Positions 1-59,290 of a DNA stretch of 64,000 nt are shown here, piece by piece. The translations under genes were made by a program, and so were the position numbers. Source of the DNA: Phyllobates terribilis (lineage: Eukaryota); NCBI RefSeq assembly GCF_046119375.1, contig NW_027362769.1:363382001-363446000 (forward strand). Direction: 5' to 3'. Below the pieces are notes generated by a model. It saw nothing but the letters and a program-made list of their open reading frames with translations, had not been told where the DNA came from and ran no database searches. Within the stretch, counting starts at the first letter, position 1; each line of letters starts with the position of its first letter.

Positions 1-3000
1 CGGAGCCAGAGAGAGAGCAGGCCGGAGCCAGGGCGAGGGCAGGACAGAGCCAGATTGAGAGCACGCCGGAGCCAAGGCGAGGGCAGGCCAGAGCCAGAGC
101 GAGAGCAGGCAGGTGCCAGGGCGAGAGCAGGCTGGAGCCACAGCGAGGGCAGGCCAGAGCCAGAGCAAGGGCAGGCCAGAGCCAGAGCAAGGGCAGGCCA
201 GAGCCAGAGCAAGGGCAGGCCCGAGCCAGAGCAAGGGCAGGCCAGAGCCAGAGCAAGGGCAGGCCATAGCCAGAGCGAGAGCAGGCCGGTGCCAGGGTGA
301 GAGCAGGCTGGAGTCAGAGCGAGGGCAGGCCAGAGCCAGAGCAAGCTGGAACCAGGGCGAGGGCAGACCGGAGCCAGAGAGACAGCAGGCCGGAGCCAGG
401 GTGAGGGCAGGCCGGAGCTAGAGCGAGAGCAGGCCGGAGCGAGAGCAGGCCGGAGCGAGAGCAGGCCGGAGCCAGGACGAATGCAGGCTGGAGGCAGGAC
501 GAGTGCAGGCAAGAGCTAGAACAGGCTGGAGCAAGGGCGAGAGCATGCCGGAGCCAAGGCGAGGGGAGGCCAGAGCGAGAGCAGGCCGGAGCCAGGGTGA
601 GGGCAGGCCAGAGCGAGTGCAGTCCAGAGCCAGGGCGAGTGCAAACAGTAGCCAGGGAGAGAGCAGGCTAGAGCCAAGGCAAGGGCAGGCCAGAGCCAGA
701 GCGAGCAGGCCGGAGCAAGGGCGAGGGCAGGACGGAGTCAGAGCGAGAGCAAGCCGGAGCCAGGGCGAGGGCAGGCCAGAGCGAGAGCAGTCCGGAGATA
801 GGTCGAGGGCAAGCCGTAGCCAGGGCGAAAGCAGGCCGGAGCCAAGGCGAAGGCAGGTCAGAGCCAGAGCAAGAGTAGGCCGGAGCCAGAGTGATAGCAG
901 GCCGGAGCCAAGGCGAGGGCAGGTAGGAGCGAGAGCAGGCCGGAGCCAAGGCGAGGGCAGGCTGAAGCCATACTGAGAGCAGGCCGGAGCCAGGGCGAGA
1001 GCAGGCCGGAGCCAGGGCGAGAGCAGGTCGGAGCCAGGGCGAGAGTAGGCCGGAGCCAGGGCGAGAGTAGGCCGGAGCCAAGGCGAGTGCAGGCCAGAGC
1101 GAGAGCAGGCCGGAGCCAGGGCGAGAGCAGGCCGGAGCCAGAGCGCGGGCAGGCCGGAGCCAGAGCGTGGGCAGGCAGGAGCCAAGGTGAGGGCTCACCG
1201 GAGCTAGAGCGAGAGCATGCTGGAGCCAGGGCGAGGGCAGGCCAGAGCCAGAGCAGGCTGGAGCAGAAGCGAGGGCAGGCAGGAGCCAAAGCGAGGGCAG
1301 GCAGGAGCCAAAGCGAGAGCAGGCCGGAGCTAAGGCGAGGGCAGGCAGAGCCAGAGCGAGAGCAGGCCAGAGCCAGGGCGAGGGCAGGCCGGAGCCAAGG
1401 CGAGGGCACACCGGAGCTATAGCAAGAGCAGGCCGGAGCCAGAGCGAGGGCAGGCCACAGCGAGAGCTGGCTGGAGCGAGGGCGAGAGCAGGCCGGAGCC
1501 AAAGCGAGGGCAGGCAGGAGCCAAGGCGAGGGCACACCGGAGCTAGAGCGAGAGCAGGCCGGAGCCAGAGCGAGGGCAGGCCAGAGCAAGAGCGAGAGCA
1601 GGCTGGAGCCAAAGCTTCGGCAGGCAGGAGCCAGAGCGAGAGCAGGCTGGAGCCAGGGCGAGCGCAGGCCAGAGCTAAGGCGAGGGCAGGCCGGAGCCAG
1701 AGCGGGAGCAGGCCGGAGCCAGGGCGAGGGCAGGCCGGCGCCAAGGCGAGGGCACATGGAAGCCAGAGCGAGAGCAGGCCGTAGCCAGGGCGAGGACAGA
1801 CCAGAGCCAGAGCGAGAGCAGGCCGGTGCCAGGGCGAGAGCAGGCCGGTGCCAGAGCGAGGGCAGGCCAGAGCGAGAGCAGGCCGGAACCTGGGCAAGGG
1901 CAGGCCGGAGACAGAGAGATAGCACGTCGGAGCAAGGGCAAGGGCTAGCCGGAGCAAGAGCGAGAGCCGGCCGGAGCCAGGGCGAGTGCAAGCCGGAGAC
2001 AGGGCGAGTGCAGGCCTGAGCGAGAGGAGGCTGGAGCCAGGGCGAGAGCAGGCCAGAGCCAGGGCGAGAGCAGGCCAGAGCCAGAGCGAAGGCAGGACAT
2101 AGCCAGAGCGAGAGTAGGCCGGAGCAAGGGAGAGGGCAAGCTGGAGCCAGGGCGAGGGCAGGCCGGAGCTAGAGCAAGAGCAGGTCGGAGCCAGGGCGAG
2201 GGCAGGTCAAAGCGAGAGTAGGCCGGAGCCAGAGAGCGGGTAGGCCGGAGACAGAGCGAGGGCAGACTGGAGACAGGGCGAAGGCAAGACGAAGCGAGGG
2301 CGAGAGCAGGCCGGGGCCAAGACGAAGGCAGGCCAGACCAGAGCTAAATCAGGCCGGAGCCAAGTTGAGGGCAGGCCAGAGCCCCAGAGAGAGCAGGCCA
2401 GAGCGAGAGCAGGCCGGAGCCAAGGCGAGAGCAGGCCGGAGCCAAGGAGATGGCAGGCCAGAGCCAGAGCGAGAGGAGGCCGGAGCCAGGGCGAAGGCAG
2501 GCAGATGCTATGGCTAGGGAAGGCCAGAGCCAGAGAGAGAGCGGGCCGGAGCCAGGGTGAGGGGAGGCCAGAGCGAGAGCAGGCAGTAGCCAGGGCGAGG
2601 GCAGGTCGGAGCCAGACCGAGAGCATGCCGGATCCAGGGCGAGGGCAGGCCGGAGCCAAGGCGAGGGAAGGCCAGAGCCAGAGGGAGAGCAGGACGGGCC
2701 AGGGTGAGGACAGGCCGGAGCCAGAGCGAGAGTAGGCCAGAGCCAGGGCAAGAGCAAGCCGGAGCCAAGGCGAGGGCAGGCTAGAGCCAGAGCGAGATCA
2801 GGCCGGAGCAAGGGCGAGGGCAGGCCAGAGCCAAGGCGAGGGCAGGCTAGAGCCAGACCGACGACAGGACATAGCCAGAGCGAGAGCAGGCCGGAGCCAG
2901 GCCGAGAGAGGGCCGGAGCCAAGGCAAGGGCACACCGGAGCCAGAGCGAGAGCAGGCCGGAGCTAGAGCGAGAGCAGGCCGGAGCCAGAGAAAGAGCAGG

Positions 3001-3236
3001 CCGGAGCCAAGGAGAGGGTAGGCCGGAGAAAGGTCGAGGGCAGGCCGGAGACAGGTCAAGGGCAGGCCGGAGCCAGAGCGAGAGCAGACCAGAGCAAGAG
3101 CGAGAGCAGGCCGGAGCCAGGGCGGGGGCAGGACGGAGCCAGAGCTAGAGCAGGCCGGAGCCAAGGCGAGGGCCGGCCGGAGGTAGAGCGAGAGCAGGCC
3201 GGAGCCAGGGCGAGGGCATGCCAGAGCGAGAGCAAA
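1..3236. repeat. GC-rich satellite built from ~11-bp monomers (GCCGGAGCCAG / GGCGAGGGCAG / AGCGAGAGCAG), ~22-bp higher-order unit; continues off the left edge
   Basis: Continuous degenerate tandem array, very T-poor on the + strand, ending abruptly near 3236. Confidence 0.95.
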
Positions 3237-5834: not shown

Positions 5835-6070
5835 CCCAACCCTAACCCTACCCTAGCCCAACCCTAACTCCAACCCTGGCCCAACCCTAACTCCAACCCT
5901 AACCCTACCCTAACCCCAACCCCAACCCATACCCTAGCCCAACCCTAACCCTAACCCCAACCCTAACCATAGCCCAACCCTAACCCCAACCCTAAGCCTA
6001 ACCCTAGCCCAACCCCAAACCTAGCCCATCCCTAACCCTAACCCTACCACAACCCTAACCCTAACCCTAA
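5835..6070. repeat. Degenerate interstitial telomere-like (CCCTAA)n array
   Basis: Runs of CCCTAA, CCCCAA and CCCTAG hexamers. Confidence 0.9.
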
Positions 6071-8050
6071 AGTTTATATTTTACGCCGTTCCTCGTGCGG
6101 TATAAGTGATTAGACGACTTTATTCTTCGGGTCAGTGCGATTACAGCGATGCCAGAATCATATCGGGATTTCATGATTGACAGCTGTCACACACTAAAAG
6201 ACGCATTTTTTTGTAAAATCTAGTTTTTGCATCGCCATATTTTGAGAGCTATAACTTTTCCATATATTGGCCGACAGAGTCACGTGACATCTTGTTTTTT
6301 GCGGGATGAGTTGACATTTTTATTGGTGCCATTTTCAGGCACGTGACATATTTTGATCGCTCTCTATTCCGATTTTTGGCAGGCAGAATAAACAAAAACC
6401 AACAATTCAGGAATTGTTTTTTTTGTTTTTTTTTTTATGCTGTTCCGCGTGTGGTAAAATTGATAAGGTAGCTTTATTCTTCGGGTCAGTACGTTTACAG
6501 TGGTACCACATTTACATTGTTTGTCTATGTTTTGGCGCTTTTACACAATAAAAGCTATTTTAAAGAAAAAATAATTTTTTTGCATAGCTTTATTCTGAGA
6601 GCTATAACTTTTTTCTTTTTCGGCTGATGGAGCTGTATGGCAGCTTGTTTTTTGCGGGACAAGATGACTTTTTCAGTGGTATCATTATTATTTATATTCG
6701 TCTTTTCGATTGCGTGTTATTCCATTTTTTGTTTGGCAGTATGATGAGAAAGCATTGTTTTTTGCTTCATTTTTTATTTATTTTTTTTACCATGTTCACT
6801 GAAGGGGCTAACTAGTGGGACAGTTTTATAGGTCAGGTCATTCCGGACGCGGCAATACCAAATATGTGTACTTTTATTGGTTTTTTTTGCATAATAATAT
6901 TTATTGATGGGTACATTATACTTTTATTTTTGGTGGATTATTTTTTTATTTTTTTTTCTTCACTTTCTGACACTTTTTTTACTTTTATTCTTTGTCCCAC
7001 TATGGGACTTTCACTTTTTTTATTCTGATCGCCTGTATAGCATAGGGATGGAGCACCAGCCCTGTGCTATTCAGGCTGTCAGCGCTGCAAATGCAGAAGG
7101 TACTTTGGTCATGCACTGTGCATGCCAAAATATCTTCCTGCTGTCTGGTAACCCAGATGTTGTCATGACGACATCGGGTCGTCATGGCAACATCCGGGAA
7201 GCCGCGGCAGACATCGCTGGACGCCGGCAGGAGAGGTGAGTATCCCGATCACCTCCCCTTGCCCCAGCAATGCTACGATCGATTCAGCTGCGACAATCGG
7301 CTGACACCCGGCGGCGATCGCGCCCGCACAGCCTGTGTGTGGGCGCGATCGCAAAGACGTACTAATACGTATCAGGCTCTTAAGTCCCAGGGCGCAGATA
7401 CATATTAGTACGTCTTGAGCTTTAAAGGGGTTAAACTACAACTCCAATGTCAGCCCCTAATTCAATAGGAACCAAAGATCTGAGTACAGAGAATGATAAT
7501 AAAATAATTTGTCCACATAAATGGCAAAACTACCCAAAAATGGAGCCCCATAAAGATGTCCCAACTTGACCTCCCCCACCCACCTAATATCAACTGATCA
7601 TCAGCAATTTCTCATTTAGACAAGGGGTTGTCCTGAAAATGTCTTATTACAGAGTGTTCCCGGCAATCCATGATAAATCCGGTGGATAAACTATAAGTAT
7701 ACCAAAGCCTAAAAGTAAAGAGCTACTTACCTGGACTCATCCTCTTCCAGCTGTCCGGTTATAGTGACACAAGATGGCAGCAGTGTAGAACATTATACAT
7801 TCTATTCCAATTGTGATGTCTATGATGTCATGTGCCTTGTGATGTCATCATAGCTATCACTGTCATTTCAAATTTACAACCGCAAGAAAAAGTTGATTTC
7901 ATTGTTTAAGAAAAAACATGGTGGGTAATTGCAGCCTGTGATTATTTTACATATTGTTATTAATATTTGTCATGTCCTTCACTGCCGCCTCCTGCACAGC
8001 TTTTTATATACTGTTTATTTTAATAATGGACAATTCACAAGCCCTGCATG

Positions 8051-9319
8051 TGACGCGCCCCCTGGGCCATGCTGCGCCGCGCCGCGCATGCGGGGACACC
8101 CGGAGCCGGATCCAACGGGGGTTGTAGTCTCCGAGTGGCGGGGACCCGGTCCGTGCCCAGGGTGGTCAAACCGACAGCAATCTATTTGTAATGTTGTTAT
8201 AGAGTTCGACTACGCCACCCGTTGATTTGCGGTCACAAGGCCGCCGCTGCAAAACAGTCCGCTGAGGCCGGTGGTATATATGTGCAGCTATGGTGGTATA
8301 ACCCCCAACGGGAGAGGTATAGCCTCAGGGCAGCTGGTACGGGAGAAGGGAGTCATAGTGAGAGCGTCCCGGTACCTATGGTGCTGGTGGTGCGATGGAA
8401 CACAGAGACTGATTGCAGCTTTCAATGCTTTACTCACAGTTGTTATTAACGTCAGTCCTGCAGGTGATGACGACCCGAGCCGTGCTGCGTCCACCAGGTG
8501 CGGGACTCGGCCAACTCCCAGGCAGTTCCAGAGCGTGGTCCTGAGCTCCCCTCTCCTCCTTCCTACTGGCCGTCCCCGCCAGGGATCCACCTCTGTCCGG
8601 CTCCCTCGGGCCTTCTGGTGGTAAAACCTTTCCCGGCTTCCCTGACCCTATACGTGGTTTGCCTTCCTGGTGGATATGGCGAGGGGTCGCGCCAAAACTT
8701 GTCCACGACCTCCGGTTCCTGGCTGAGGATATTTGGCCTCCACCAGTTTGGGATCCGGTACCCTGTTCTGCCAACCCTTCACCCGTTAGCTCGTGGGATC
8801 TCAGGGTTCCCTCTTCTCCTGCGTCTCTGGGCCTCTCCTGGCGCTTCTGTTCTTTCTCCTTCCTCTGTCTCTCTGCTTCAGGCCTCCACTCCAGGCCTGA
8901 CTCTGGAGCTGGGCCCGGACTGAGCCACAGCTCCCTGTCAGCCCTCTCTGGCTGAGCTCCTCTCTTAACAGACCCCTGATCCAAGATGGTGCCCCCCTTA
9001 TATACTCCCTTCTGACACCCGAGCCCAGGTGACTAGCACCCAATGGGCTCCTACCTATGCCCAGAGTCCCTCCCCTCTCTGCTCCTACACCACTGGGATG
9101 TTCCTCCCCCCCCCCACTCCAGCCGGGGACAGAAGCTGTCGTACCTGCACATCTATCTGGTGGGAGTACCGTTGGTCTGTCCCCCGGAAATAGGGTGAGT
9201 GTAGTGCATGCAGCTAACTGAGCTCAGTTCCACACTCCATCCTTACCCGGGAGTGGAATACCACACCTCTGGTTCGAGGTGCAATACCCCTGTAGCAGCC
9301 GAGTCCTCGGGGTGCTACA
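8051..9319 (-). repeat. 3' LTR of copy A
   Basis: Direct repeat of 11847-13105; differs by a 12-bp indel, poly-C length and a few substitutions. Confidence 0.95.
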
Positions 9320-9331
9320 TTCCCCCCTGGT
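9320..9331 (-). promoter_or_regulatory. Polypurine tract
   Basis: Minus strand ACCAGGGGGGAA directly precedes TGTAGCAC of the 3' LTR. Confidence 0.8.
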
Positions 9332-9895
9332 AAATCACAGCACGTCCTCGGGCTGGAAAAGAGCAAAACAATATAAAACATACAATAATTTTAAAGTGTA
9401 CACTTGCATGTAAGACATATTAACTGAAAACTCATCCCTTTATGGGAGGTACTCTGTTCTTCTTAACGTTACAGGTATAAAACATTACGAAAACATTATC
9501 AGACTTTCTGCACACTTATAAAATACCATTAAATCTTTTAGCATCATATAAAACTTTTTCATATAAAACATTCTTGACCAACACGTTCTTGATCTCTGGC
9601 CACCGTGCAACTTGTGACCAGGTAAAGTGCAACAGTCTCTAATTTCGTGATAGAAAAAAAACAGTTCTTTATAAAACCAGTAGGGGGCGCTTTAGGAAGC
9701 GCAACTATTTACAGGGTGACCGCTCTCAGTCCTCGGCCAGTGGGGAATAAGGAAGTGGCTGCTCACAGTCCTCAGCCTGGTTAGGGATAGGGGCACACAG
9801 GAAACAGTTCCACGCTAGTCCCAACGGGGACCACACTCCAATTAGCAACAGGTCAGGTACCCTGATGGGTAACTATGTACAGTTTCAGTTACCGT

Positions 9896-11590
9896 TCATT
9901 TGTAACGACGTCCTCCTGCTCCTTCCTGAGGGTAGTCTTCAGACCCGTCCGGGTCCTCTTGGTCTTCCTCATACTGCAACTCCTCCTCAGTCAGCCGGTG
10001 TACGTGGAGGGCGTACGGTCCTTTAGCACACTGATGCCGGGTGAAGGTGACCACATCACCCGGGTAGAGGTCACGTCTACGGTGTCCCTCCGGCAGGTGG
10101 CTCTCAACATCCCTGCGGGTGACAAAGACGTCGCCGGGGGTTCGGTGATCCCGGATAAAGCCCCAGCCGTTCTCCAGTTGAAACTTTATTACGGTCCCGG
10201 TGGCGCGGGGACCGTGGGCCGTACGGGGGTTTCGTCGGGCCCGGCGTTTCTGCTCCGCACTTTGGACCTGCAGCTGTTCCTCGCGGATCCGCCTCTCTCG
10301 CCGTTCTCTCCCAAAGACCTCTAGCTGTTGACGGCAGCACTCCTCACGCCGGGCTGCGGCCGCCCGGGTCTCCTTGGTGAACCCCATGAGGTCCTCACCG
10401 GTCGGGTCCCATGCGAATTGGGCGTCCTCCAACGGGAGCGGGACAATTTTGGCGGGCGCCGGGATCAGAGGCTCACACAGGGGTCGTTCCCTCCGGAGTC
10501 GGGGGTTGATGTACTCCGGTGGCCACACAAAGGGCAGCCCGTCCGGGCTAGTATGCTGCGCGAAGAGATCTTCGCCCAGAGGCAGCACTGTGGAAGTTGA
10601 GGGCGCTGGGGCAGCGGTGCCCGGAGGTACCCGGCCTTGCGTCCAGGCCGGAGGCATCCTCTTTGGGTCCAGGTATGGCACCTTTGGAGAGGAGGGCGCC
10701 GTGGGGGCAGCGGCGCCCGGATGCACCAGGCCTTGCGACCAGGCCGGCGGCACAGTGGAGGTAGAGGGCGCTGTGGAAACCGCGGCGCCCGGGGGTACTC
10801 GGCCTTGCGCCCAGGCCGGTGGCACTTCCTGTTTTGCCACGCTCAGGGTCAAGGGGCGTGGCGTAACAGAGGGCGTGACCGCGGCTCCTGCCGCTTGAGG
10901 CCTAGTTGGGAGCAGTGGCGGTGCGGCAATGGGCTCGGTGAGTATGACTTCGGGCTCTGCGACGGGGAGCTGGGGCAGGCTTACGGCTACTGGGCACGGG
11001 GTGATGACGTCCCCATTACCTGCTTCCATCCTTGCAGCTCCCTCCGCGGCGTCGTCTCCGGCCTTTGTCCCTCCTGCACCATCCTCAGGGGCAGACATGC
11101 CCCACGTTGCGGGTGGCGTCCTCCGCTGGCGGGTTCCAGCCTGCTGGGCCATCTACCTTCTCCATTCGGCCAGTGCTTCTTGCTGTACTCGGGCCATCTT
11201 CCGGGCCAAGGCCTCCAGCGCGGTCTGTGCATGCTCCCGATCTCTGGGGAGTTGTGCTAGGATCCCCACCAGGCCTTCTGGGGTGGCGGCCTGCAACAGG
11301 CTCCGGACCACGGGGTCGGTGCTGCTCGACTCTCCCTCCATCTCCGGGTGCGATCTGTCCAGACTCCTCCAGGCCGCACCCATCTTCTCAGCTTTGTTCT
11401 CTCTCCGCCCCCATTGGGAGTGGTCCCGGGGCAACTTGGTGACTGTCAGTTTCAGGGGCAGCCCCCCCACTCTGATGGACATCTCCATTATTGTAGTCTC
11501 GGCTGGTGGGGGCGGTCTCTTCCTTTGGCGCCACTCTGGGGCCATGCCCACGATGGGAGGTGGTCTCTTGCCACCCTCTGGCACGCCCAT
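9896..11590 (-). pseudogene. LTR-element ORF (~564 codons): helical N-terminus, Pro/Ala-rich repeats, coiled coil, C-terminal cold-shock domain; one in-frame TAG at 11153-11155
   Basis: GTVIKFQLENGWGFIRD..GDVFVTRRDV..LYPGDVVTF..KGPYALHV matches the CSD RNP1/RNP2 pattern of YBX/Lin28 proteins; ORFs 11153..11896 and 9896..11152 are in one frame. Confidence 0.8.
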
Positions 11591-11823
11591 AATGGCGTCC
11601 GCTCTGCCAGGGCGGGAAACCTTCTCAGATGGCGGGAATCGTCTCCTGATGGCGGGAAACTCCGCGGATGGCGGGTAAAGGCTGCAAATGGCGGGCAAAC
11701 GGCGGGAAACGACTCCGGACGGCGTCCGATGGCGGGAACCCTCCGGAATTGGCGGGAGACTTCTTTTTGAGGTACATGTTAACTTTTCTTCAGGCACGCA
11801 GTACCCGGTGGTTGCGGGCACGT

Positions 11824-11842
11824 AATCCTGCCGACTACGCCA
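11824..11842 (-). promoter_or_regulatory. Primer-binding site for tRNA-Ser
   Basis: + strand AATCCTGCCGACTACGCCA equals the 3' end of vertebrate tRNA-Ser plus CCA; 4 nt from the LTR. Confidence 0.9.
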
Positions 11843-11846
11843 AAGT

Positions 11847-13105
11847 TGACGCGCCCCCTGGGCCATGCTGCGCCGCGCCGCGCATGCGGGGGACACCCGG
11901 AGCCGGATCCAACGGGGGTTGTAGTCTCCGAGTGGCGGGGACCCGGTCCGTGCCCAGGGTGGTCAAACCGACAGCAATCTATTTGTAATGTTGTTATAGA
12001 GTTCGACTACGCCACCCGTTGATTTGCGGTCACAAGGCCGCCGCTGCAAAACAGTCCGCTGAGGCCGGTGGTATATATGTGCAGCTATGGTGGTATAACC
12101 CCCAACGGGAGAGGTATAGCCTCAGGGCAGCTGGTACGGGAGAAGGGAGTCATAGTGAGAGCGTCCCGGTACCTATGGTGCTGGTGGTGCGATGGAACAC
12201 AGAGACTGATTGCAGCTTTCAATGCTTTACTCACAGTTGTTATTAACGTCAGTCCTGCAGGTGATGACGACCCGAGCCGTGCTGCGTCCACCAGGTGCGG
12301 GACTCGGCCAACTCCCAGGCAGTTCCAGAGCTCCCCTCTCCTCCTTCCTACTGGCCGTCCCCACCAGGGATCCACCTCTGTCCGGCTCCCTCGGGCCTTC
12401 TGGTGGTAAAACCTTTCCCGGCTTCCCTGACCCTATACGTGGTTTGCCTTCCTGGTGGATATGGCGAGGGGTCGCGCCAAAACTTGTCCACGACCTCCGG
12501 TTCCTGGCTGAGGATATTTGGCCTCCACCAGTTTGGGATCCGGTACCCTGTTCTGCCAACCCTTCACCCGTTAGCTCGTGGGATCTCAGGGTTCCCTCTT
12601 CTCCTGCGTCTCTGGGCCTCTCCTGGCGCTTCTGTTCTTTCTCCTTCCTCTGTCTCTCTGCTTCAGGCCTCCACTCCAGGCCTGACTCTGGAGCTGGGCC
12701 CGGACTGAGCCACAGCTCCCTGTCAGCCCTCTCTGGCTGAGCTCCTCTCTTAACAGACCCCTGATCCAAGATGGTGCCCCCCTTATATACTCCCTTCTGA
12801 CACCCGAGCCCAGGTGACTAGCACCCAATGGGCTCCTACCTATGCCCAGAGTCCCTCCCCTCTCTGCTCCTACACCACTGGGATGTTCCCCCCCCCCCCC
12901 CACTCCAGCCGGGGACAGAAGCTGTCGTACCTGCACATCTATCTGGTGGGAGTACCGTTGGTCTGTCCCCCGGAAATGGGGTGAGTGTAGTGCATGCAGC
13001 TAACTGAGCTCAGTTCCACACTCCATCCTTACCCGGGAGTGGAATACCACACCTCTGGTTCGAGGTGCAATACCCCTGTAGCAGCCGAGTCCTCGGGGTG
13101 CTACA
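11847..13105 (-). repeat. 5' LTR of copy A
   Basis: Direct repeat of 8051-9319, adjacent to the PBS. Confidence 0.95.
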
Positions 13106-13599
13106 CATGTACTGTAGAATATATAGTTAATGGCCTCTGTTGAATGACTAGATGCCTATTAGAGCAATAAGATATACTCTAAGTCTACAATCTTTTGGCT
13201 GAGTCTAAGGGCTCATACTCATCTGCATTTAAATCACACGAGTGCAATCTGATAAAAAAAAAAATTGGATTGCTCTCTGACTCTTGTTATTGAATGATTA
13301 TGTGTTTCTGTGATTTTTTTTTTTTCCCAGCTCGGATCGAACTGAGAAAAAAAAATCACAGCATGCTGCAAGTGGCTGCATATATCAGACGAGACTCGCC
13401 AATGCAAGTCAATGTGTGCGAGAAAAAAAACGCACAGCAAACGGACCATGCTTATGCCATCCACATAATACGCATCTATGTAACACCGTTCAGTGACTGT
13501 GGCGGCATCTCAGCACACAAATCCTGTATCTCAGATCTTTGTCTGGCCTTCTCTTCTGTGTTTTGGCCATCATGCCGACAAGACAAAGGTGATTGGGGT

Positions 13600-17430: not shown

Positions 17431-20400
17431 CATACCTCTCAACTTTTGAAGAACAGAAAGGGGGACAGAAAGAGGCTATGCGCGGCAAATTTTGGTCACG
17501 CCCCTGGTCACACCCCAATCCACGCCCATTTACCATTATCTTTCTCGCCCGTCAGGAGGAGTTGTCAGAGGGGTGCTGGTAGTGAGGGAAATTCAGCAGA
17601 CGGCCGAGACTGCAAGGAGCAGACCCAAATCCAGTACTGTCCACTGTATCCAGGGCAGTTGGGACTAGAGATGAGCAGATGGATTCCGGGGACTCCAGTC
17701 GGGCGTCCAGGTCAGTGCTACCTGGCGGCTGGACTGGAGGCCATGAATCTCTTATCTTCCGGGGCAGTGCGGCGTCATCTGTGAGTCCTGCTCAACTCTT
17801 GTTGGGACCTGAGGATTATTTTTTGTTCCTCATTCACAGTCGGAGCCGCCAGAACTTTCTCATCTTTATGTAGATTCATTATACGACATCTGGCTTTCTT
17901 GTGGTGGCTCTTACTGTATATTGGGGGCTATGCGAGGGCTCATACTGTAGGTAGCTGTGGTGTGTTCTAATACTGTATGTATGGAGTTGTGTGGGGGCTC
18001 ATACTGTATATAGGGGGATGTCAGCATACTTAAATCTGCTCTATATTAAGTGATAATATAAATATACAAAAAAAATAAAATTAATATGTTAATATTAATA
18101 TTGAGCTAAATTAATTTGAACCTATTGGTTCGGGCTCCACAACAGTCACGGTCTCTCATGTGGCCCCTTGGGAACATTAATCTCCCACCCCTGTTCTATT
18201 TCAAAGAGCTATGTTAAAAATCACACAGACATCATACGGACATCATACACACAGCGGGCACAACCATCACACAGACATCATACACACAGCGGGCACAACC
18301 ATCACACAGACATCATACACACAGCGGGCACAACCATCACACAGACATCATACACACAGTGGGCACAACCATCACACGGACATCATACACACAGCATGCA
18401 CAACCATCACATGGACATCATACACACAATGGGCACAACCATCACACAGACATCATACACACAGCATGCACAACCATCACACAGACATCATACACACAGC
18501 GTGCACAACCATCACACGGACATCATACACACAGCGTGCACAACCATCACACGGACATCATACACACAGCGGGCACAACCATCACACGGACATCATACAC
18601 ACAGCGTGCACAACCATCACACAGACATCATACACACAGCGGGCACAACCATCACACAGACATCATACACACAGCGGGCACAACCATCACACAGACATCA
18701 TACACACAGCGGGCACAACCATCACACACATACATCATACACACAGCGGGCACAACCATCACACAGACATCATACACACAGCGAGCATAACTATCACACG
18801 GACATCATACACACAGGGTGCACAACCATCACACGGACATCATACACACAACGAGCACAACCATCACACACACAGCGGGCACAACCATCACACACACATC
18901 ATACACAAAGCGGGCACAACCATCACACACACGTCATACACAGAGCGGGCATGCCATCATACAGACATCATACACACAACGGGCACAACTATCACATGGA
19001 CATCATACACACAGCGTGCACAACCATCACACAGACATCATACACGCAGCATGCACAACCATCACACAGACATCATACATACAGCGGACAAAACCATCAC
19101 ACAGACATCATACACACAGCGGGCACAACCATCACATGGACATCATACACACAGCATGCACAACCATCATACAGACATCATACACACAGAGGGCACAACC
19201 ATCACACAGACATCATACACACAACGGGCACAACCATCACATGGACATCATACACACAGCGAGCATAACTATCACACGGACATCATTCACACATCGTGCA
19301 CAACCATCCCACGCACATCATACACATAACGAGCACAACCATCACACACATACATCATACACACAGCGGGCACAACCATCACACGGACATCATACACACA
19401 ACGGGCACAACCATCACACACACACACATCATACACACAGCGCGCACAGCCATCACACGGACATAATACACACAGCGGTCACAACCATCACACAGACATC
19501 ATACACACAATGAGCACAACAATCACACAGACAACATACACACAGCGAGCACAACCATCACATGGACATCATACACATAATGGGCACAACCATCACACAC
19601 ACACACAGACATCATACACATAGCGTGCACAACCATCACACGGACATCATAAACACAACGGGCACAACCATCACAGGGACATCATACACACAGTGAGCAT
19701 AACTATCACACGGACATCATACACACAGCGTGCACAACCATCACACAGACATCATACACACAACGAGCACAACCATCACACACATACATCATACACACAG
19801 CGGGCACAACCATCACACGGACATCATACACACAACGGGCAAAACCATCACACGGACATCATACACACAGCGAGCATAACCATCACAAGGACATCATACA
19901 CACAACGAGCACAACCATCACAAGGACATCATACACACAACGAGCACAACCATCACACACATACATCATACACACAGCGGGCACAACCATCACACACACA
20001 TCATACACAGAGCGGGCATGCCATCATACAGACATCATACACACAACGGGCACAACTATCACATGGACATCATACACACAACGGGCACAACCATCACACG
20101 GACATCATACACACAACGGGCACAACCATCACACGGACATCATACACAAAGCGGGCACAACCATCACACAGACATCATACACACAGCGGTCACAACCATC
20201 ACATGGACATCATACACACAACGGGCACAACCATTGCACAGACATTATACACACAGCGAGCATAACTATCACATGGACATCATACACACAATGAGCACAA
20301 CCATCACACATACATCATACACACAGCGGGCACAACCATCACACGGACATCATACACACAAAGGGCACAACCATCACACGGACATCATACACACAGCGAG

Positions 20401-21721
20401 CATAACTATCACACGGACATCATACAAACAGCGTGCACAACCATCACACGGACATCATACACACAACGAGCACAACCATCACACACATACATCATACACA
20501 CAGCGGGCACATCCATCACACGGACATCATACACACAGCGAGCACAACCATCACACACATACATCATACACACAGCGGGCACAACCATCACACGGACATC
20601 ATACACACAATGGGCACAACCATCACACGGACATCATACACACAGCGAGCACAACCATCACACACATACATCAGACACAAAGTGGTCACAACCATCACAT
20701 GGACATCATACACACAACGGGCACAACCATCACACGGACATCATACACACAACGAGCACAACCATCACACACATACATCAGACACAAAGTGGTCACAACC
20801 ATCACATGGACATCATACACACAACGGGCACAACCATCACACAGACATCATACACACACCGAGCATAACTATCACACGGACATCATACACACAGCTTGCA
20901 CAACCATCACACGGACATCATACACACAGCGGGCACAATCATCACACGGACATCATACACACAACGGGCACAATCATCACACGGACATCATACACACAAA
21001 GGGCACAACCATAACACAGACATCATACACACAACCGGCACAATTATCACACGGACATCATACACACAACGGTCACAATTATCACACGGACATCATACAC
21101 ACAGCGGTCACGACCATCACACACACACATCATACACACAGCGGGCACAACCATCATACACACAGCGGGCACAACATGACATGTATATATTCACTTCTTC
21201 TCCATCATGTCTCCATTGGCAGTGGTGGGGCCTGGTGTTTGCAATCAGCAGCAGAGGATGGGCTGTACGCAGGAGAGCTGTCAGCCCTGCAGTGTCCCTA
21301 AATCCCCTTCCCATCTCCCCTAGTCCCGACTGCAGAGCTGCTGGTGACTTTGCATGAGCCCCCACCCATCCTGTAATAACAGCAGCTACAGATGGGAGAG
21401 GCTGAGGGTCTCCCCCCTCACCTCAGGACAGCACCTTGTTGTCATGTCCTCCGCAGACTTGGCCCCGCCCCCTGTCCCCTCACCTCCTCATGCTGTGCGG
21501 TCTCTCTGCACAGTAGAATTCCTCTGCACTGATGCCGGGGAGGAGCAGGGAGCGGGAGGCGGAGCTACAAGGAGTCACACACAGCATGGAAAGCCTGCAT
21601 GTCTGGAAAAAAAAAGCCCAGTGCCTAGCAACGCCCCTGCCGGGAGAAGAGCTGAGCCGGGACGGGACTGAGCCCTCAAATCGGGACAGGCCCAGGGAAT
21701 AGGGGAGGGTTGTTAGCTATG
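17431..21721. mobile_element. Probable hAT-like non-autonomous element containing the 35-bp minisatellite
   Basis: CATACCTCTCAAC ... GTTGTTAGCTATG imperfect TIRs, GGGAC subterminal motifs, GATATT on both flanks. Confidence 0.45.
18218..21176. repeat. 35-bp AC-rich minisatellite (CACACAGCGGGCACAACCATCACACAGACATCATA)n, roughly 80 copies
   Basis: Direct reading; His/Thr-rich ORFs cycle through all three frames because 35 is not a multiple of 3. Confidence 0.95.
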
Positions 21722-22464: not shown

Positions 22465-22875
22465 CAGTCAATTAAAGATGTGTCTGACAGGATATCAAGA
22501 CTCTTCAGACCTACAGATCACTACCCATTCCTGCTAATACATGTGGGGACAAATGACACCGCAAGAAAGGACCTGGAAACCATCTGCAGTGACTTTGAAG
22601 ACTTAGGCAAGAAAGTGAAAGAATTGGGAGCGCAGGTGGTCTTCTCATCCATCCTCCCAGTGGATGGCCATGGAACAATGAGGTGGAATAAGATTCTACA
22701 GGTGAACAACTGGCTACGTCGATGGTGCCGTCAACAAGGATTTGGATTTCTGGATCACGGAATGAATTACCTATACGATGGACTACTTGCTAGAGATGGG
22801 GTGCACCTTACGAAGACTGGAAAACATGTATTTGGAAGTCGCCTTGCTACACTCATCAGAAGAGCTTTAAACTAG
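22465..22875 (+). pseudogene. CR1 ORF1 C-terminal SGNH-esterase fragment
   Basis: LIHVGTND..VVFSSILP..NNWLRRWC..GFGFLDH..DGVHL. Confidence 0.85.
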
Positions 22876-22997
22876 AACAATGTGGGAAGGGAAGCAAAAG
22901 GCCAGAAAAAGCCATACAGCTGACAAATACTATTGAGATCTCTGCTACTGGAAGTGGAAAAGAAGAACAAAGACAAAAAAATCTAAATAATAAAAAT

Positions 22998-25787
22998 ATG
23001 GGAGGAAGAGAAACCAATCACAAACTAAAATGTTTTTATACAAATGCACAAAGCATGGGCAACAAACAAGGAGAATTGGAACTACTAATGCAGGAAAAGG
23101 AATATGATGTCATTGGAATCACTGAAACTTGGTGGGACGATACACATGATTGGAATAAAAGGCTAAAAGGATACAACTTATTTGCAAGAAACAGACTTGA
23201 TAAACGAGGAGGAGGTGTTGCATTGTATGTTAGAAAAGCGTATATCTGCACAGAGATTGAAGCTTCAGAGACTGGGAGTTCTGTGGAAACTGTTTGGGTA
23301 AGAATACAAGGAGAGAACAACGGAAAGGACACCATTGTAGGCATTTACTACAGGCCACCTGGGCAAGCTGAAGATATGGATGAACTCTTTATGTATCAAA
23401 TGACCAAGTTCTCCAAAAAATATGACGTAGTGGTCATGGGAGATTTCAACTATCCAGACATTTGTTGGGAATCTCTCTCAAGTAAAACTAACAGGTCAAG
23501 CAAATTCTTATCCTCTCTTGCTGACAACTTTATCTTCCAAAAGGTAGGGGAGAAAACAAGGGGATCTGCTACTTTGGATCTAATCCTTATAAACAGGGAG
23601 GAAATGGTTGAGGAGGTAAAGGTGGCTGGGACCCTAGGAGGCAGCGATCATGCTATTATAGAATTTTGGATAACTAGAGGAGGAAGACATGTGAAGACTC
23701 AAACTTCAAGGTTAGATTTTAGAAAGGCAGATTTTAAGAGACTCAGAAAGAGAATAGGAGGGATCCAATGGCTGGATGTCCTTAAGGACAAAAATGTCCA
23801 GGAAGGATGGGAAATTTTTAAAAATGAGATTCTCAAAGCACAGTCGTTAACAATCCCGAAAAGTAGGAAGAATGGGAAGCATTTAAGGAAACCAGGATGG
23901 ATGAACACAGAACTTAAACACATGCTAAAAAGAAAGAAAGAAAGGTTTATTAAATGGAAAGAGGGAGGCATATCTAAAGAAGATTATAATGCAGTCTGCA
24001 GATCCTGCAGGGCACGTATCAGGTTAGCTAAAGCTGACAATGAATTAAGGCTTGCAAGAGATGTCAAAAGCAATAAAAAAGGATTTTGGGGGTATGTCAA
24101 AAGTAAAAGAAAAGTCAAAGATGCTATAGGATTTTTACAGGATGAAAATGGAGAAATGGTAAGAGAGGATGTTGAGAAGGCCGAACTTTTTAATTCCTAT
24201 TTTGCATCTGTTTTCTCTCAGAAAGAAAATGTAACATCAACTGATCTTCACTGTCCTTTTAAAGGAATAGAGGAATCCAAGTTATCAGTAAACAGAAAGA
24301 TTGTGAGGGAATATTTAGCTAACTTAAATGAGTTCAAGTCTCCAGGTCCAGATGAATTACACCCCAGAGTACTGAAGGAGATTGTAGAAGAAATTTTAGA
24401 ACCACTCTCCATAATCTTTGAAAATTCTTGGAGAACAGGAGAAGTCCCAGAAGACTGGAGAAGAGCAAATGTTGTTCCTATCTTCAAAAAGGGGAAGAAG
24501 GTGGACCCAGGGAACTATAGGCCGGTGAGTCTGACATCTATACCAGGAAAGATCTTTGAACAAATTATTAAACAACATGTATGTAAGTACATGGATAAGA
24601 ATGAAGTGATTAACCAGAGTCAGCATGGGTTTGTAACTAACAAGTCATGTCAGACTAACTTAATTTCCTTCTATGACAGAATCACTGACTGGGTGGATCA
24701 GGGAAATGCTGTAGATATAGTATATCTTGACTTCAGCAAAGCATTTGACAAAGTATCTCACATCATCCTTATTGAAAAAATGACCAAGTATGCAATGGAC
24801 CAGGCAACTGTTAGGTGGATTCATAACTGGCTTAGTGATCGGACTCAAAGGGTGGTTGTAAATGGCTTCACATCCAGCTGGATGAATGTCTCAAGTGGGG
24901 TACCACAGGGCTCCGTCCTGGGACCTGTATTGTTCAACATCTTTATCAATGATTTAGATGAAGGAATTGAGGGTAAACTGATTAAATTTGCTGATGACAC
25001 AAAGCTAGGAGGGATAGCTAATACTAGAGAAGAGAGAGAGAGGATTCAAAAAGACCTAAATAAACTGGAGCAGTGGGCAGCAACCAACAGAATGGTTTTT
25101 AACAGGGAAAAATGCAAAGTACTACATCTGGGCAATAAAAATGAAAAAAGCATATACAGAATGGGAGGAATAGAGCTAAGCAACAGTACATGTGAAAAAG
25201 ACTTAGGTATACTAATAGATCATAGACTGAACATGAGTCAACAGTGTGATGCAGCAGCAAAAAAGGCAAATACAATTCTGGGATGTATTAACAGAAGCAT
25301 ACAGTCTAGATCACGTGAAGTCATTATCGGTCTTTACTCCTCTTTGGTCAGACCTCATCTGGAATACTGTGTACAGTTTTGGGCACCACATTTTAAAAAA
25401 GACATCGACAAACTGGAGCAAGTTCAGAGAAGAGCGACCAGAATGGTGACTGGTCTGCAAACCATGTCCTATGAGGAACGGTTGCAGGATTTGGGAATGT
25501 TTAGCTTGCAAAAAAGAAGACTGAGAGGAGACTTAATAGCTGTCTACAAATATGTCAAGGGCTGTCACATTGTAGAAGGATCATCTTTATTCTCATTTGC
25601 ACAAGGAAAGACTAGAAGCAATGGGATGAAACTAAATGGGAGGAGACACAGATTAGATATTAGAAAAAACTTTTTGACAGTTAGGGTGATTAATGAGTGG
25701 AACAGGCTGCCACGAGAGGTGGTGAGTTCCCCTTCAATGGACGTCTTCAAACAGAGGCTGGACAGACATCTGTCTGAGATGATCTAG
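22998..25787 (+). CDS. CR1 ORF2: apurinic-like endonuclease plus reverse transcriptase (929 aa)
   Basis: TNAQS, GITETW, YYRPP, GDFN, SDHA; YRPVSL, QHGF, LDFSKAFD, GVPQGSVLGP, FADD. Confidence 0.95.
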   Translation: MGGRETNHKLKCFYTNAQSMGNKQGELELLMQEKEYDVIGITETWWDDTHDWNKRLKGYNLFARNRLDKRGGGVALYVRKAYICTEIEASETGSSVETVWVRIQGENNGKDTIVGIYYRPPGQAEDMDELFMYQMTKFSKKYDVVVMGDFNYPDICWESLSSKTNRSSKFLSSLADNFIFQKVGEKTRGSATLDLILINREEMVEEVKVAGTLGGSDHAIIEFWITRGGRHVKTQTSRLDFRKADFKRLRKRIGGIQWLDVLKDKNVQEGWEIFKNEILKAQSLTIPKSRKNGKHLRKPGWMNTELKHMLKRKKERFIKWKEGGISKEDYNAVCRSCRARIRLAKADNELRLARDVKSNKKGFWGYVKSKRKVKDAIGFLQDENGEMVREDVEKAELFNSYFASVFSQKENVTSTDLHCPFKGIEESKLSVNRKIVREYLANLNEFKSPGPDELHPRVLKEIVEEILEPLSIIFENSWRTGEVPEDWRRANVVPIFKKGKKVDPGNYRPVSLTSIPGKIFEQIIKQHVCKYMDKNEVINQSQHGFVTNKSCQTNLISFYDRITDWVDQGNAVDIVYLDFSKAFDKVSHIILIEKMTKYAMDQATVRWIHNWLSDRTQRVVVNGFTSSWMNVSSGVPQGSVLGPVLFNIFINDLDEGIEGKLIKFADDTKLGGIANTREERERIQKDLNKLEQWAATNRMVFNREKCKVLHLGNKNEKSIYRMGGIELSNSTCEKDLGILIDHRLNMSQQCDAAAKKANTILGCINRSIQSRSREVIIGLYSSLVRPHLEYCVQFWAPHFKKDIDKLEQVQRRATRMVTGLQTMSYEERLQDLGMFSLQKRRLRGDLIAVYKYVKGCHIVEGSSLFSFAQGKTRSNGMKLNGRRHRLDIRKNFLTVRVINEWNRLPREVVSSPSMDVFKQRLDRHLSEMI

Positions 25788-36172: not shown

Positions 36173-36266
36173 TTAAATGACTTCTTGTTTTGGTTTTTAT
36201 ATTGTTTGAATTTCTGTATCTTTTTTTCATAATTAAAAAAAAAGTTCTTTACAGGAATTTTGAACA

Positions 36267-39200
36267 ATGGGCATCAAATCTTTGGTAAAGAAAAATAAAA
36301 GAGAATCTACAGTACCAGAGAATGAAGAAATACAAAAAAACCCAGGCAAAAATAAGGACGTGACAAAATTAAGTTCCGAACAAACAGTTTCAGAGACAAC
36401 TAATTCACATTCAACATCAAGATTTTTAGCATTGTCTCTTCCATTTCACAATAAGAAGAAACCAAAAAGTGGTGGAAATTTAAAGAAATGTATATGCACT
36501 GAAGACTTATTGAAAGCTGCTACTAGAGTGTTTGAAAGAAGTCCAAACACTGAAGTGAATTCAAGCGTTAGTAGTGGGAGCTTCTGGTGCAAGCTTGCAG
36601 AAGAAGTAGCGCCAAAAACCAAAACGCACAGAAAAAAACTTATCCGAAATTATAGCTTAGCATGTAGAAACCTCTGGGACACAGATTTCAACTTTAGAGA
36701 ATGTATTATGAAAGTCACCAACAAAGAAAAATGTGAAAAACAAGGAATCCCACGGCAACCTCTTTCTCAAACTATTGGTGAACAAAGTCTGCCTACATTA
36801 AATGAACAAAAACCAGAACTGGAGAATGAAATGAAGAAGGGTTGTGATGACAGCGCTCTTGGTAAATACAACAAGAGTGAAGCAGTGTCTGATGACATGG
36901 AATCATTCACTGGAGACAACAGTTACTGTTCAGAGAAAGGGCTACATGAAAGTAATTCAACTGGTAAGGATGAATTTGTGATTTATGAGCCCAAAAATAT
37001 TACCAATAACAATGTTTACACAAAAATACTGACAAAATTAACACCAACTGAAGCATTTGAGATTCTGAAGAAAGGTGATAAGTGTAGGGTGACCAATTTG
37101 CCACCACTTAATCCACAGCATGGTTATGTGTTTTACTTTTACAAAGAAGGAAAAGCAAGGGATTGCATAGCAGATCAATTGCAGTTTGATTACATCTCCA
37201 GGAATAAGTATACCTTTAAAGGGGAAACATGCTTCAAGGTTATATACAAGCCAAGACACCCACCAGAAGAGGCATGTGAACTTTTTGAAAAGTACATTTT
37301 TAGCCTCGGTCAAACTGATAACAGTTGCAGGCTAATTCAGTACTTTGGAAATCCAAATACAATGCAGCTTAAAGCCCATGGTAATCGCAAACACTACAAG
37401 AACAAGATATTTTTTACTACTGCACCATCAATCATTAAAGAGCAGAGGGAAAACTTATCACAGCCACCCATGAAAGTTTATAAAGCACAGTGTACACGTT
37501 TCATACCTCCACAATATGAAGCTGCTTTAGGACCGCGTGATGTAAAGCAGGCACAAAACAGTGCTATGAGAGAGTGTGTAAAGCGTCGTTTGTGCCAAGA
37601 TGATGTTTATTCCATAGTTGAATTGGAGCGCTTGTTTGGTGGTTTTGTAATGCAGCTAGATGTCCTACATGATTTCTATTGTATCCTTGCAAAAGAAGAA
37701 CTAATAGAAGAAGCGAATACATTTGCAAAACACAAGGACAGCAACTTTAGTTGTGACACAACTTTCGAGTTTGGTGATTTTTATGTGACTACTGTCACAT
37801 TTAACCACCCTGCTTTTCAAAATGCATGTGTAATTTCAATTTTCATATTGATGCACCAAAAGAAAGATGAAGGTACACACAGAAAGTTCTTCAATTTTAT
37901 TTCTGAAAAGTGTCCAGCATTTAACAGCAACATGGTGAAAATCATTACTGACCGTGAAAAGGCAATTACAAACAGTATAGATGCACAGCTTCCCCAGGTT
38001 AAACGATTCCTGTGTTGGAACCACATGAGGAAAGATGTGCAATACTGGACGCAAAGGCATGGTGGACAACAAATGGACAAATTAACATATGAAAGCTGTA
38101 TTTACAGTTTAATGAACAGCAAGACACCAAACGAATATGTAAGTAAGTTAGAAGAACTTAGCCAACATTGGACAGAAGAATTCCTCACTTACTATAAGAA
38201 GCACCTGGAATCAGATATCCTCAATTACTGTGCACGGTGGCTTTTAGAAGAACACAACATGTTCATAGAACCTTCAGGAATAACAACAAATCAAAGTGAG
38301 AGTTTTAATTCTGTGCTAAGAAGACTTCATGATGGGAAAGAAATAAACATGGAAGGTTTTGTTCTGTCTATGTTTTACTTAACTTCTTACTACACAAAGG
38401 AAGTTCTGAGAGGGAGATGTGGACTGGGTAACTTCAACCTGAAAGGAGAGTTCCGGGCTCTTAACCCAGCTGATGTATCATTTCCTGAAGTACTGGTAAC
38501 ACCCGAAAGCTTGGTGGAATTTGTAAAGGAACAAAAACTTGTGATCACAAAAGAAAATGCATGTAAAACAGGAAGCCATCTGCCAAGAAGAACAATGGCA
38601 GAAGGAATTCTCAATACACCAGGTGGTATTGTGTTGGTGCCACAGCAGAAAGTATTCCTTGTTAAAGGTTTTAAAAATGAATCTTACATTGTGCAACTTT
38701 TCCCAAAGACTTCTTGTTCATGTCCATCATCCAGACAGTGTCACCACATTATGGCAGTTCAGCTATCAGTGGGATTGGATCCAAGGGAAGAGACAGATGA
38801 AGGAAATCTAAGCAGGTTGTACAAAAAACAAAGGGGAAAAGGAAAAAGTGGACGGAAGTTCACTTCTAAACCATTATTGACATCTCCAGCCGATGACTCA
38901 ATCCAAAGCATGAATCTAAATAATGGAGACGAGGAGGCAATACTTACAACACAAGTTATGCCAGGATACAGTGCACGAACTGCAAAAATTGTTAAAATAT
39001 CACCACCTGAACCATCCGTAGGTATGTCTAAACTTCATGTCTTAACCACAAAAAAGCTTGTTCCAGCAAGTAAGTCAAAAGCGGTCATTGTGAAAAAGAA
39101 ACTAAATTTGCAAAAGCCTCTGAAAACATCAACCCCAAAACAAAGTATAAGATCAGAGGCAGAGTCACTGAAATACTACAAAACCAGTAGAATGAAGTCA

Positions 39201-40235
39201 ATCAGTGCAATTGCTGAGACACATGCACATAAACTACCAAATGATGTTATCGCTGAAGTGGACCGTATAATGATCAAGAAGATCAACATGGATACTTTAA
39301 GTGGACAGCAGTGGCTGGATGACACAATTATTGATGCATACTTGGCACTACAATGTAGTGTAGCCATGGGGAAAAACCCTCACCTGAAATTTGCCTACAT
39401 TCCATGTAACTTCGTTGAAGCATTTTGCAAGAAGTGGACTAAAAGCAAAACACCCTATCACACTACAATGATACATGGGAAGAGAAACAACATATGGCAC
39501 AAGGATATCATATTAATACCTTGCTATATATTTGGCAACCATTGGGTGCTAACAATAGTAGTGCCAAAATATAGAAGTGTCTATTATATAGACAGCAAGT
39601 ACAGTGCAGAGGATAAGAAAGTTGTACAGGCAGTCCATGTTCTTCTGAAGGTGTTATCCCATTTGTGTGAAGGAGAGCCATATAACAAAACATGGAAATG
39701 GGTGAAGCCAGTTGATGTCCTGATACAGAAGGATGGCTCCAGTTGTGGAGTTTATGTTTGTATCTGCGCACATGTTTTAGCAAATGGGACCACCATTTGA
39801 CTAAACCATGATGAAGTACACAACTTTCGTGATTTTATTTCTACTGAATTACAAGCAGTGGTTCCAGGCACAGTAAAAGTTACCACACTTACTGGTGATA
39901 CAACTGTGACACTCCCAGAAGTAAGTAGTCAGTGGTGGTCAGATGCAGATTTTACACCAACTGTGCAACCAGGACCTCAAAACTTTTGTACTCTTAATTG
40001 GATGACTAATTTATGTAATACAATTTGGGAAGCCAATTCAAGCATCTGTTATGCAGGAGTGAATTGTTGCCAGCCTAATAGAAATGTGTGTGCAACAGAG
40101 GAAGATATGAAAATGGTTTTCTGTGAATTTGCATGCCAAGAATGGTACCACAAAGCATGTGAAGGACTATCTGATAAACAATTACCATCTATGTACAAAT
40201 GCAGAAAATGTCAAAATGCTGAATTTGAGGTGTAA
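36267..40235 (+). pseudogene. MULE transposase - SWIM - Ulp1/C48 protease - PHD finger ORF (1322 codons) with one in-frame TGA at 39798-39800
   Basis: DDE motifs CDTTF, TDREKAI, CWNH, TTNQSESFN; SWIM CSCPSSRQCHH; Ulp1 WLDDTII, NHWVL, YIDS, QKDGSSCG; PHD C..C..FCEFACQEWYHKAC..YKCRKC; 39801-40235 continues in the same frame. Confidence 0.85.
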
Positions 40236-59256: not shown

Positions 59257-59290
59257 AGATGGGGGGGGAAACCACGGAAATAGGTGGGAT

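Follow-up and report, generated by a model that had tools for sequence, protein, structure and literature searches.

The stretch of DNA analyzed here (the window) comprises 64,000 nt from the poison frog Phyllobates terribilis (contig NW_027362769.1, positions 363,382,001 to 363,446,000 of the forward strand). At 8051-13105 it holds a non-autonomous, protein-coding long terminal repeat (LTR) retrotransposon without gag and pol, whose only gene ends in a cold-shock domain (CSD). Alignment of the two LTRs over 1257 bases reveals 3 substitutions, together with 3 indels; these near-identical 1.26 kb repeats, the CATG target-site duplication, the 19-nt primer site (which we take to be of the tRNA-Ser type) and the polypurine tract are all present as a first-pass annotation, made from the letters alone, had described them (Table 1). 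That annotation had also recognized no reverse transcriptase (RT), integrase, protease or CCHC knuckle, and a Pfam scan of five interior frames agrees, matching the CSD alone and no gag or pol family. The 5' LTR shows TATATAA at LTR position 317 and AGTAAA at 875 (motif matches only); the last ~285 nt of the LTR, on the U5 side, are homologous to the end of the LTR of the likely helper, a Gypsy element described below.

The interior is not of the LARD or TRIM type, being a selected open reading frame (ORF) of ~565 codons. The earlier description of a single interior frame ending in a CSD is right about the CSD but not about the openness of the frame, since the in-frame TAG at codon 146 interrupts the ORF and leaves the window copy without a full-length protein. 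In the protein encoded by the element, an acidic tail of 34 residues follows the CSD.

Table 1. Parts of the CSD element and of its insertion site, in window positions
Feature	Position	Strand	Basis
Whole LTR element	8051-13105	minus	LTRs, CATG duplication, primer site, purine tract, one ORF
Target-site duplication CATG, left copy	8047-8050	plus	Flank sequence; single CATG at empty paralogous sites
3' LTR, 1269 nt, ends TGTAGC...GCGTCA	8051-9319	minus	LTR comparison
Polypurine tract AGGGGGGAA, abutting the 3' LTR	9320-9328	minus	Same nine purines before the helper's 3' LTR
Single ORF, 564 codons, broken in the window copy	9896-11590	minus	Frame analysis; open (at least 530 aa) in 16/33 other copies
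Cold-shock domain PF00313, five-stranded barrel, Y-box-length loop	9998-10201	minus	Pfam, model; omega 0.12
Predicted long charged helix ahead of the CSD	10232-10375	minus	Model residues 39-86; omega 0.19 over the 72 codons before the CSD
72-nt tandem repeat (PPAW units), Pro/Ala linker	10692-10825	minus	Unit number and order differ among copies; linker omega 0.83
Conserved N-terminal amphipathic segment	11138-11299	minus	Omega 0.27; no significant Pfam family
In-frame TAG at codon 146 of the window copy	11153-11155	minus	Leaves 145 + 418 codons
5' leader with CCCGCC repeats, candidate packaging signal (inferred)	11591-11823	minus	Repeat counts versus helpers
Primer binding site, 19 nt, 4 nt from the 5' LTR	11824-11842	minus	Core identical to that of the helper Gypsy
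5' LTR, 1259 nt, ends TGTAGC...GCGTCA	11847-13105	minus	LTR comparison
Target-site duplication CATG, right copy	13106-13109	plus	Flank sequence

A DNA search of the 10.6 Gb host genome with the CSD region gave 6,594 first-look candidates, 40 of which, including the window copy, were scored. The ~5 kb LTR-interior layout is uniform in the other scored copies (39/39). Six of these could not be delimited; among the 33 that could, 28 are flanked by a perfect 4-bp duplication of their own, the LTR pairs are 2-29 substitutions apart, and the interiors measure 1.9-3.2 kb. The genome-wide search did recover intact copies, with one open frame of at least 530 codons in 16 of the 33 and a broken or shortened frame in 17. 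A search with a more distant frog protein yielded 89 matches, and the 20 copies fetched from these belong to further sub-families B, C and D (65-73% DNA identity); the CSD frame is found in 19 of the 20, the primer motif in 13, and pol inside none.

Exact patterns for the junction of LTR end and primer site occur 55,762 and 6,007 times in the genome (reversed controls 0). Forty junctions of the larger pattern (every second of the first 80 listed places, within the first 14 Mb of one contig) lead to gag/pol in 26 cases, to a CSD in 10 and to neither in 4. Seven of these 10 CSD elements have at least 400 open codons before the CSD, and the LTR identity of the sampled CSD elements is 99.2-100% (median 99.8%, n = 9). 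The first 30 places of the smaller pattern comprise 23 CSD-type elements, 6 gag-bearing elements and 1 other. Scaled from samples at the start of one contig, the copy number of CSD elements is very roughly 18,000; the first-look candidates of a protein search (44,019) and of PF00313 (33,380) are not copy numbers. The 4-bp duplications, the LTR identities and the lack of gag/pol bear out the earlier proposal of a non-autonomous, recently mobile family. CSD matches spaced 3.8 kb apart, as at C13:252.74 Mb, C9:174.28 Mb, C1:1176-1178 Mb and on many unplaced contigs, suggest tandem LTR-interior-LTR arrays, and identical CSD scores across unplaced contigs suggest segmental amplification.

Both profile and structure prediction confirm the CSD. 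The element ORF scores 33.1 bits with the Pfam CSD model (cut-off 27, E = 5e-8), and an AlphaFold model of the last 185 residues (pLDDT 80) consists of a 48-residue helix and a five-stranded barrel. Foldseek run with this barrel returns the domains of CspA, YBX1/2, Lin28 and Unr at similar E-values. A profile of all 26 aligned CSD rows ranks YBX1/2 first at 58 bits, with bacterial Csp at 44 and Lin28 at 26; a profile of the 11 own-genome rows keeps YBX ahead by a margin of only 5 bits (31.6 versus 26.5), and single-sequence ranking puts bacterial Csp narrowly ahead of YBX. The loop after RNP2, between strands 3 and 4, has YBX length. The Y-box-type loop insertion claimed at first pass is thus upheld in loop length and in profile rank, but the GHRRRD quoted for it is private to the window copy and not the family sequence (GHRGRD in 16/16 aligned open-frame copies). 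From these comparisons, the CSD of the element is likely of Y-box origin.

CSDs are single-strand nucleic-acid chaperones, and YBX proteins carry a long basic/acidic C-terminal tail after theirs. In YBX the CSD is N-terminal, whereas in the element it is C-terminal, behind the long helix and ahead of a short acidic tail. The residues of YBX1 that stack on nucleic acid are W65, F74, F85 and H87, according to the available text of PMC7498358. The element resembles YBX1/YBX2 (PDB 6ktc, 7f3l) in the CSD fold, in the length of the strand 3-4 loop, in RNP1 (GxGFI) with its F74 equivalent, invariant over the 26 rows, and in the F85 equivalent of RNP2, present in at least 90% of them. It differs in that identity is only ~30%, in having no equivalents of W65 and H87, and in two gains, an aromatic pair in strand 5 and an Arg-Arg that follows RNP2. 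Over the 26 rows, which include proteins labelled from four frog genera, seven columns of the CSD never vary. A tree of the CSD (26 rows by 74 columns, with no YBX row) is mostly unresolved and gives no count of captures. Across the genome, the highest-scoring Pfam CSD hits are CSDE1-like, not YBX; an intronless, fragmented CSDE1-like retrocopy lies at C1:734.44 Mb (L300-L305), and exons of the host gene corresponding to it lie at C2:702.8 Mb (L306-L307).

The CSD is under strong purifying selection. Codon-model estimates from 13-23 natural copies per region put omega at 0.12 in the CSD (23 rows, 74 codons), 0.19 in the 72 codons preceding it, 0.27 in the N-terminal segment, 0.83 in the Pro/Ala linker and 0.90 in the first 83 codons; twice the log-likelihood difference from omega = 1 is ~191, 128, 69, 2 and 0.3, respectively. 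Between sub-families, the nonsynonymous distance (dN) of the CSD is 0.14-0.32 and the synonymous distance (dS) runs from 0.98 to saturated. The CSD is therefore not neutral by the dN/dS comparison proposed at first pass.

The N-terminal segment belongs to no significant Pfam family, with no Pfam Death match in 18 members, and its dimer prediction scores 0.01. Pfam Death candidates number only 41 genome-wide. A profile built from the segment (11138-11299) weakly matches the TNFR1 death domain (E = 0.001, 54 columns), with four invariant columns in the alignment. The weakly constrained N-terminus has no Atlas match and a low-confidence fold. For the first 83 codons (11342-11590, minus strand) a single-sequence model predicts a beta-hairpin, and dS there is 0.29 between sub-families A and B versus ~1 elsewhere, though omega is near 1, hinting at a possible RNA-level element or recent recombination.

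The junction search also identified the likely source of the missing functions, autonomous Gypsy copies encoding Gag (zf-CCHC, with a PNMA match below cut-off) followed by protease, RT, RNase H and integrase. One such helper, L231, encodes zf-CCHC in its Gag and RT, RNase H and integrase in its Pol (helper Pol was typed by Pfam and domain order). Among 20 extended loci, chosen by junction type, 16 have gag or pol, and no frame longer than 280 codons in these 16 carries a CSD. Helper LTRs are 1 kb long, with pairs up to 99.9% identical and 4-bp duplications. Over the U5-primer-leader block, 376 of 499 bases (75%) are identical between the window copy and L231 (E = 6e-79), and the two have in common the primer core, the purine tract, the TGT(A/G)GCACCCC start and the 4-bp duplication; an autonomous Gypsy sharing the LTR ends and primer site, sought since the first-pass annotation, thus exists. 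In the 330 nt after the primer site, CCCGCC is repeated 8 times in the element, 5-7 times in three helpers and not at all in four other Ser-primer Gypsy copies.

Likeness between the element and the L231-type Ty3/Gypsy, with its PNMA-like Gag, is confined to U5, the Ser-type primer site, the leader, the purine tract, the LTR termini and the 4-bp duplication. They have no coding sequence in common, and most of the LTR (the U3/R side) is not detectably similar. BLASTP of the element ORF against helper Gag finds no similarity (best E = 2.2), and the element interior has no blastn or tblastx match in six helper interiors. These results rule out the interior as a deletion product of the helper or as a TR-GAG-type interior.

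Alignment of the U5-leader shows the window copy to be 74-77% identical to three helpers and 64% identical to CSD sub-families B and C, while sub-family C is 79-80% identical to two other helpers. The corresponding tree (61 rows) places the window group beside the L231-type helpers and B and C inside another helper lineage, and the approximately unbiased (AU) test rejects a single clade for all CSD elements. Because the ORFs of sub-families A, B and C are homologous and their LTRs are for the most part shared, the simplest reading would have the U5-leader renewed from different helpers, suggesting repeated swaps of cis-signals between CSD elements and helpers. Template switching between element and helper would in turn need co-packaging.

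Three other groups were considered as helper and rejected. SCAN/Gmr1-like elements (30 loci out of 150 matches) use different primer sites, are mostly flanked by 5-bp duplications and show no homology in the LTR. In the best-scoring PNMA family (20 of 150) the purine tract is similar and the duplication measures 4 bp, but the primer site is a different one. Ser-primer Gypsies with TTACA termini (30 of 2,527, 20 extended) match in the primer site but not in U5 or leader. No U5-leader similarity beyond nested insertions was found in the SCAN, top PNMA or other Ser-primer Gypsy copies. The SCAN-bearing Gmr1-like elements include four (L080-L083) with open frames of 1557 codons, 5-bp duplications and 661-nt LTRs that reach 100% identity, and they have shorter gag-only relatives (L086-L089, L099).

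Relatives extend beyond the family. A second, distant CSD-only LTR lineage, E (L181-L184, on C1), accounts for 6 of 30 places of another Ser-primer pattern; its LTRs are ~1 kb long with TTACA termini, its junction resembles that of other Ser-primer Gypsies, and its CSD forms a clade with Bufo, Ranitomeya (R. imitator) and Logan proteins (support 95/92). Protein relatives, known as proteins only, are labelled Phyllobates terribilis, Ranitomeya variabilis, R. imitator, Anomaloglossus baeobatrachus and Bufo bufo, and are annotated as uncharacterized or as "Y-box-binding protein 2-A-like." Homologue searches with proteins P0125 and P0102 return only themselves or one Bufo protein. The annotated protein P0003 joins a fragment of the CSD element to a Harbinger-type nuclease (precomputed PF04827, PF13359), and is probably an annotation running across nested elements.

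We favor, with a probability of roughly 0.6, the reading that the element is a satellite copied in trans by a co-resident Gypsy, and that its predicted CSD protein binds its own RNA, favoring survival or packaging of that RNA. Helper Gag would package the satellite RNA through the common U5-primer-leader, helper RT would prime it with the same tRNA, and helper integrase would insert the product with a 4-bp duplication. Template switching between co-packaged RNAs would then have renewed the cis-signals of the satellite at least twice. Assignment to this class, a helper-copied satellite with template-switched cis-signals, is the firmest part of the reading and very probably correct. For the protein itself, presumably made in the germ line, we propose action mainly on the RNA that encodes it, although the odds for such a cis-acting RNA-binding role are no better than even. 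Action on its own RNA is favored because selection that has lasted so long amid non-coding derivatives must reward the coding copy itself or its near kin. The binding surface, remodelled relative to YBX1, would perhaps be more selective than that of a generic chaperone.

Several observations weigh against this satellite reading. Some derivatives with young LTRs are non-coding or deleted (L226, L233, L239, L249, L269), and the protein is therefore not needed in cis for a copy to move. Except in one distant relative, all element rows have lost the equivalents of W65 and H87, which may leave RNA binding weakened or changed. The rows used for omega were picked for their CSD score and an open frame, a choice that biases omega downward; even so, the differences between regions within the same rows, and how deep dS is, argue for real protein-level constraint. 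The cis-signals are just 75% identical to those of the helpers sampled, and the true helper sub-family may therefore lie outside the sample; in the leaders of sub-families B and C, CCCGCC occurs only once. The group behind the AU result (p-AU 1.6e-5) was fixed after a first tree had been seen. As a separate observation, two of the derivatives (L233, L239) have helper-type LTRs and ~300 nt (78-81%) in common with the 3' untranslated region of the CSD element.

Of the other explanations, the one that survives best, though we think it unlikely, makes the protein a trans-acting anti-silencing or RNA-stabilizing factor that shields satellite and helper RNA alike from PIWI-interacting RNAs or other host defence, so that the satellite is a partner of its helper. 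Helper and satellite are indeed both young and very abundant, the CSD gene has moved along with at least two lineages of helper, and the junction of a second CSD lineage resembles that of other Ser-primer Gypsies; bird endogenous retroviruses (ERVs) have also captured CSDs repeatedly, according to the available text of PMC12287698. A shared benefit would, however, be open to non-coding cheaters, yet the frame is kept in 7 of the 10 sampled CSD copies, and the Pfam scans detected no domain known to touch the silencing machinery.

Y-box proteins mask mRNA in frog oocytes, and the element protein could by analogy be a masking factor that stores element RNA untranslated until helper proteins are present. 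We regard this as improbable. YBX1/YBX2 are top-ranked among solved structures, and Gypsy RNA is high in the ova of another poison frog (available text of PMC6278860), but the analogy is weakened by the loss of the W65 and H87 equivalents and of the YBX domain order, with a 34-residue acidic tail in place of the basic/acidic one. A still poorer candidate is the nucleocapsid substitute suggested at first pass: the ORF sits at the usual place of gag, in sense with the primer site, and a CSD would supply chaperone activity, but the protein shows no similarity to helper Gag or helper interiors and has no capsid domain for a nucleocapsid to attach to, while helper Gag owns a CCHC knuckle, and we regard the suggestion as very improbable. 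Equally hard to credit is a CSD gene that is a neutral passenger captured as a fragment from the host, or that stays open only because a translated frame stabilizes the RNA: 17 of the 33 nearest copies and the window copy are broken or shortened, and the linker and first 83 codons evolve at omega 0.8-0.9, but breaks in single inserted copies are expected after insertion, seven CSD columns do not vary across the 26 rows, and the idea is largely refuted by selection that is domain-specific and strong (CSD omega 0.12) over dS near 1.

At the locus itself, the flanks of the insertion form a segmental repeat. Eight paralogous sites within 4 Mb (C9 363.8-367.3 Mb, L292-L299) hold a solo LTR between the same flanks, so the insertion predates the local duplication; three more on C11 (L284, L290, L291) are empty, with one CATG. 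The window copy is the sole full element among the nine C9 sites examined. Because the insertion predates the duplication, the LTR pair may understate its age, and dating from the pair, which differs by 3 bases internally but by 3-10 from the eight paralogous solo LTRs, was set aside. Contigs of uncertain kind from four sequence runs contain a join that skips the element; this join corresponds to the empty paralogous sites and does not demonstrate polymorphism at the locus.

Elsewhere in the window, a 1178-codon frame at 36264-39800 combines a Ulp1 protease domain with a weak match to a MULE transposase, marking a Mutator-like element. Two long interspersed nuclear elements with open endonuclease-RT frames lie at 22794-25787 and 58252-62191, the second with an upstream GDSL esterase frame. 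Tandem arrays occupy 1-3233, 5835-6070, 18216-21156, 47702-50389 and 63026-64000; their units are of 22 nt, interstitial telomere-like AACCCT, 35 nt and 67 nt (the last in two inverted blocks).

Known helper-reliant elements (LARD, TRIM, TR-GAG, BARE-2, mouse VL30, ETn/MusD) keep the LTR, primer site, packaging leader and polypurine tract, and their interiors are non-coding or gag-derived. The poison-frog element differs from all of these in carrying a host-derived, selected gene unrelated to the genes of its helper. The Xenopus elements 1a11, xretpos(L) and lambda-olt 2-1 are likewise frog LTR elements without pol homology; the available text of PMC4585706 describes them as embryo-expressed and thought to be transposition-incompetent, and mentions no CSD, whereas the poison-frog family, compared with them by description only, is young, dispersed and helper-matched. 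The first-pass annotation knew of no described LTR family with CSD cargo. This holds for a CSD-only, helper-dependent Gypsy element, for which no literature report was found (Repbase and Dfam lay outside the search), and the terms "cold shock" and "CSD" have 0 occurrences in the main text of PMC4131045, on frog LTR elements. It does not hold for CSD capture as such. According to the available text of PMC12287698, 46 CSD-carrying copies of bird ERVs (ERV-A/B, ERV-G), typed by RT, have the CSD at variable positions, and its authors see in this convergence a hint of benefit to the element. Those LTR-bearing elements resemble the present one in having captured PF00313 more than once; they differ in having a retroviral RT, whereas here there is no RT, the CSD gene stands alone, copying probably depends on a Gypsy, copies number roughly 10^4 and selection has been measured. 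The supplements of that report (Table S6, Fig. S10), outside the literature search, could list CSD-only elements.

Non-autonomous LTR elements are usually seen as decayed or non-coding, and here a host-derived gene for a predicted RNA-binding protein is kept under strong selection, which spans sub-families near synonymous saturation while the helpers change. What a retrotransposon parasite can encode to win packaging or to evade silencing can now be tested. Taken with the repeated capture of CSDs by bird retroviruses, the family hints at cold-shock domains as an accessory that recurs among LTR elements. As a tentative generalization, hyloid frogs may host an old, undescribed class of satellite-virus-like LTR elements, making up ~1% of a 10-Gb genome, whose sole gene, with no structural or enzymatic gene beside it, would encode a captured Y-box cold-shock protein, re-engineered to steer or protect their RNA. 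Such elements would have survived helper turnover by repeatedly adopting the U5-primer-leader of the Gypsy active at the time. The finding bears on annotation, because ORFs of these elements are filed as host genes for an "uncharacterized protein" or a "Y-box-binding protein 2-A-like," and it bears on the gigantism of poison-frog genomes.

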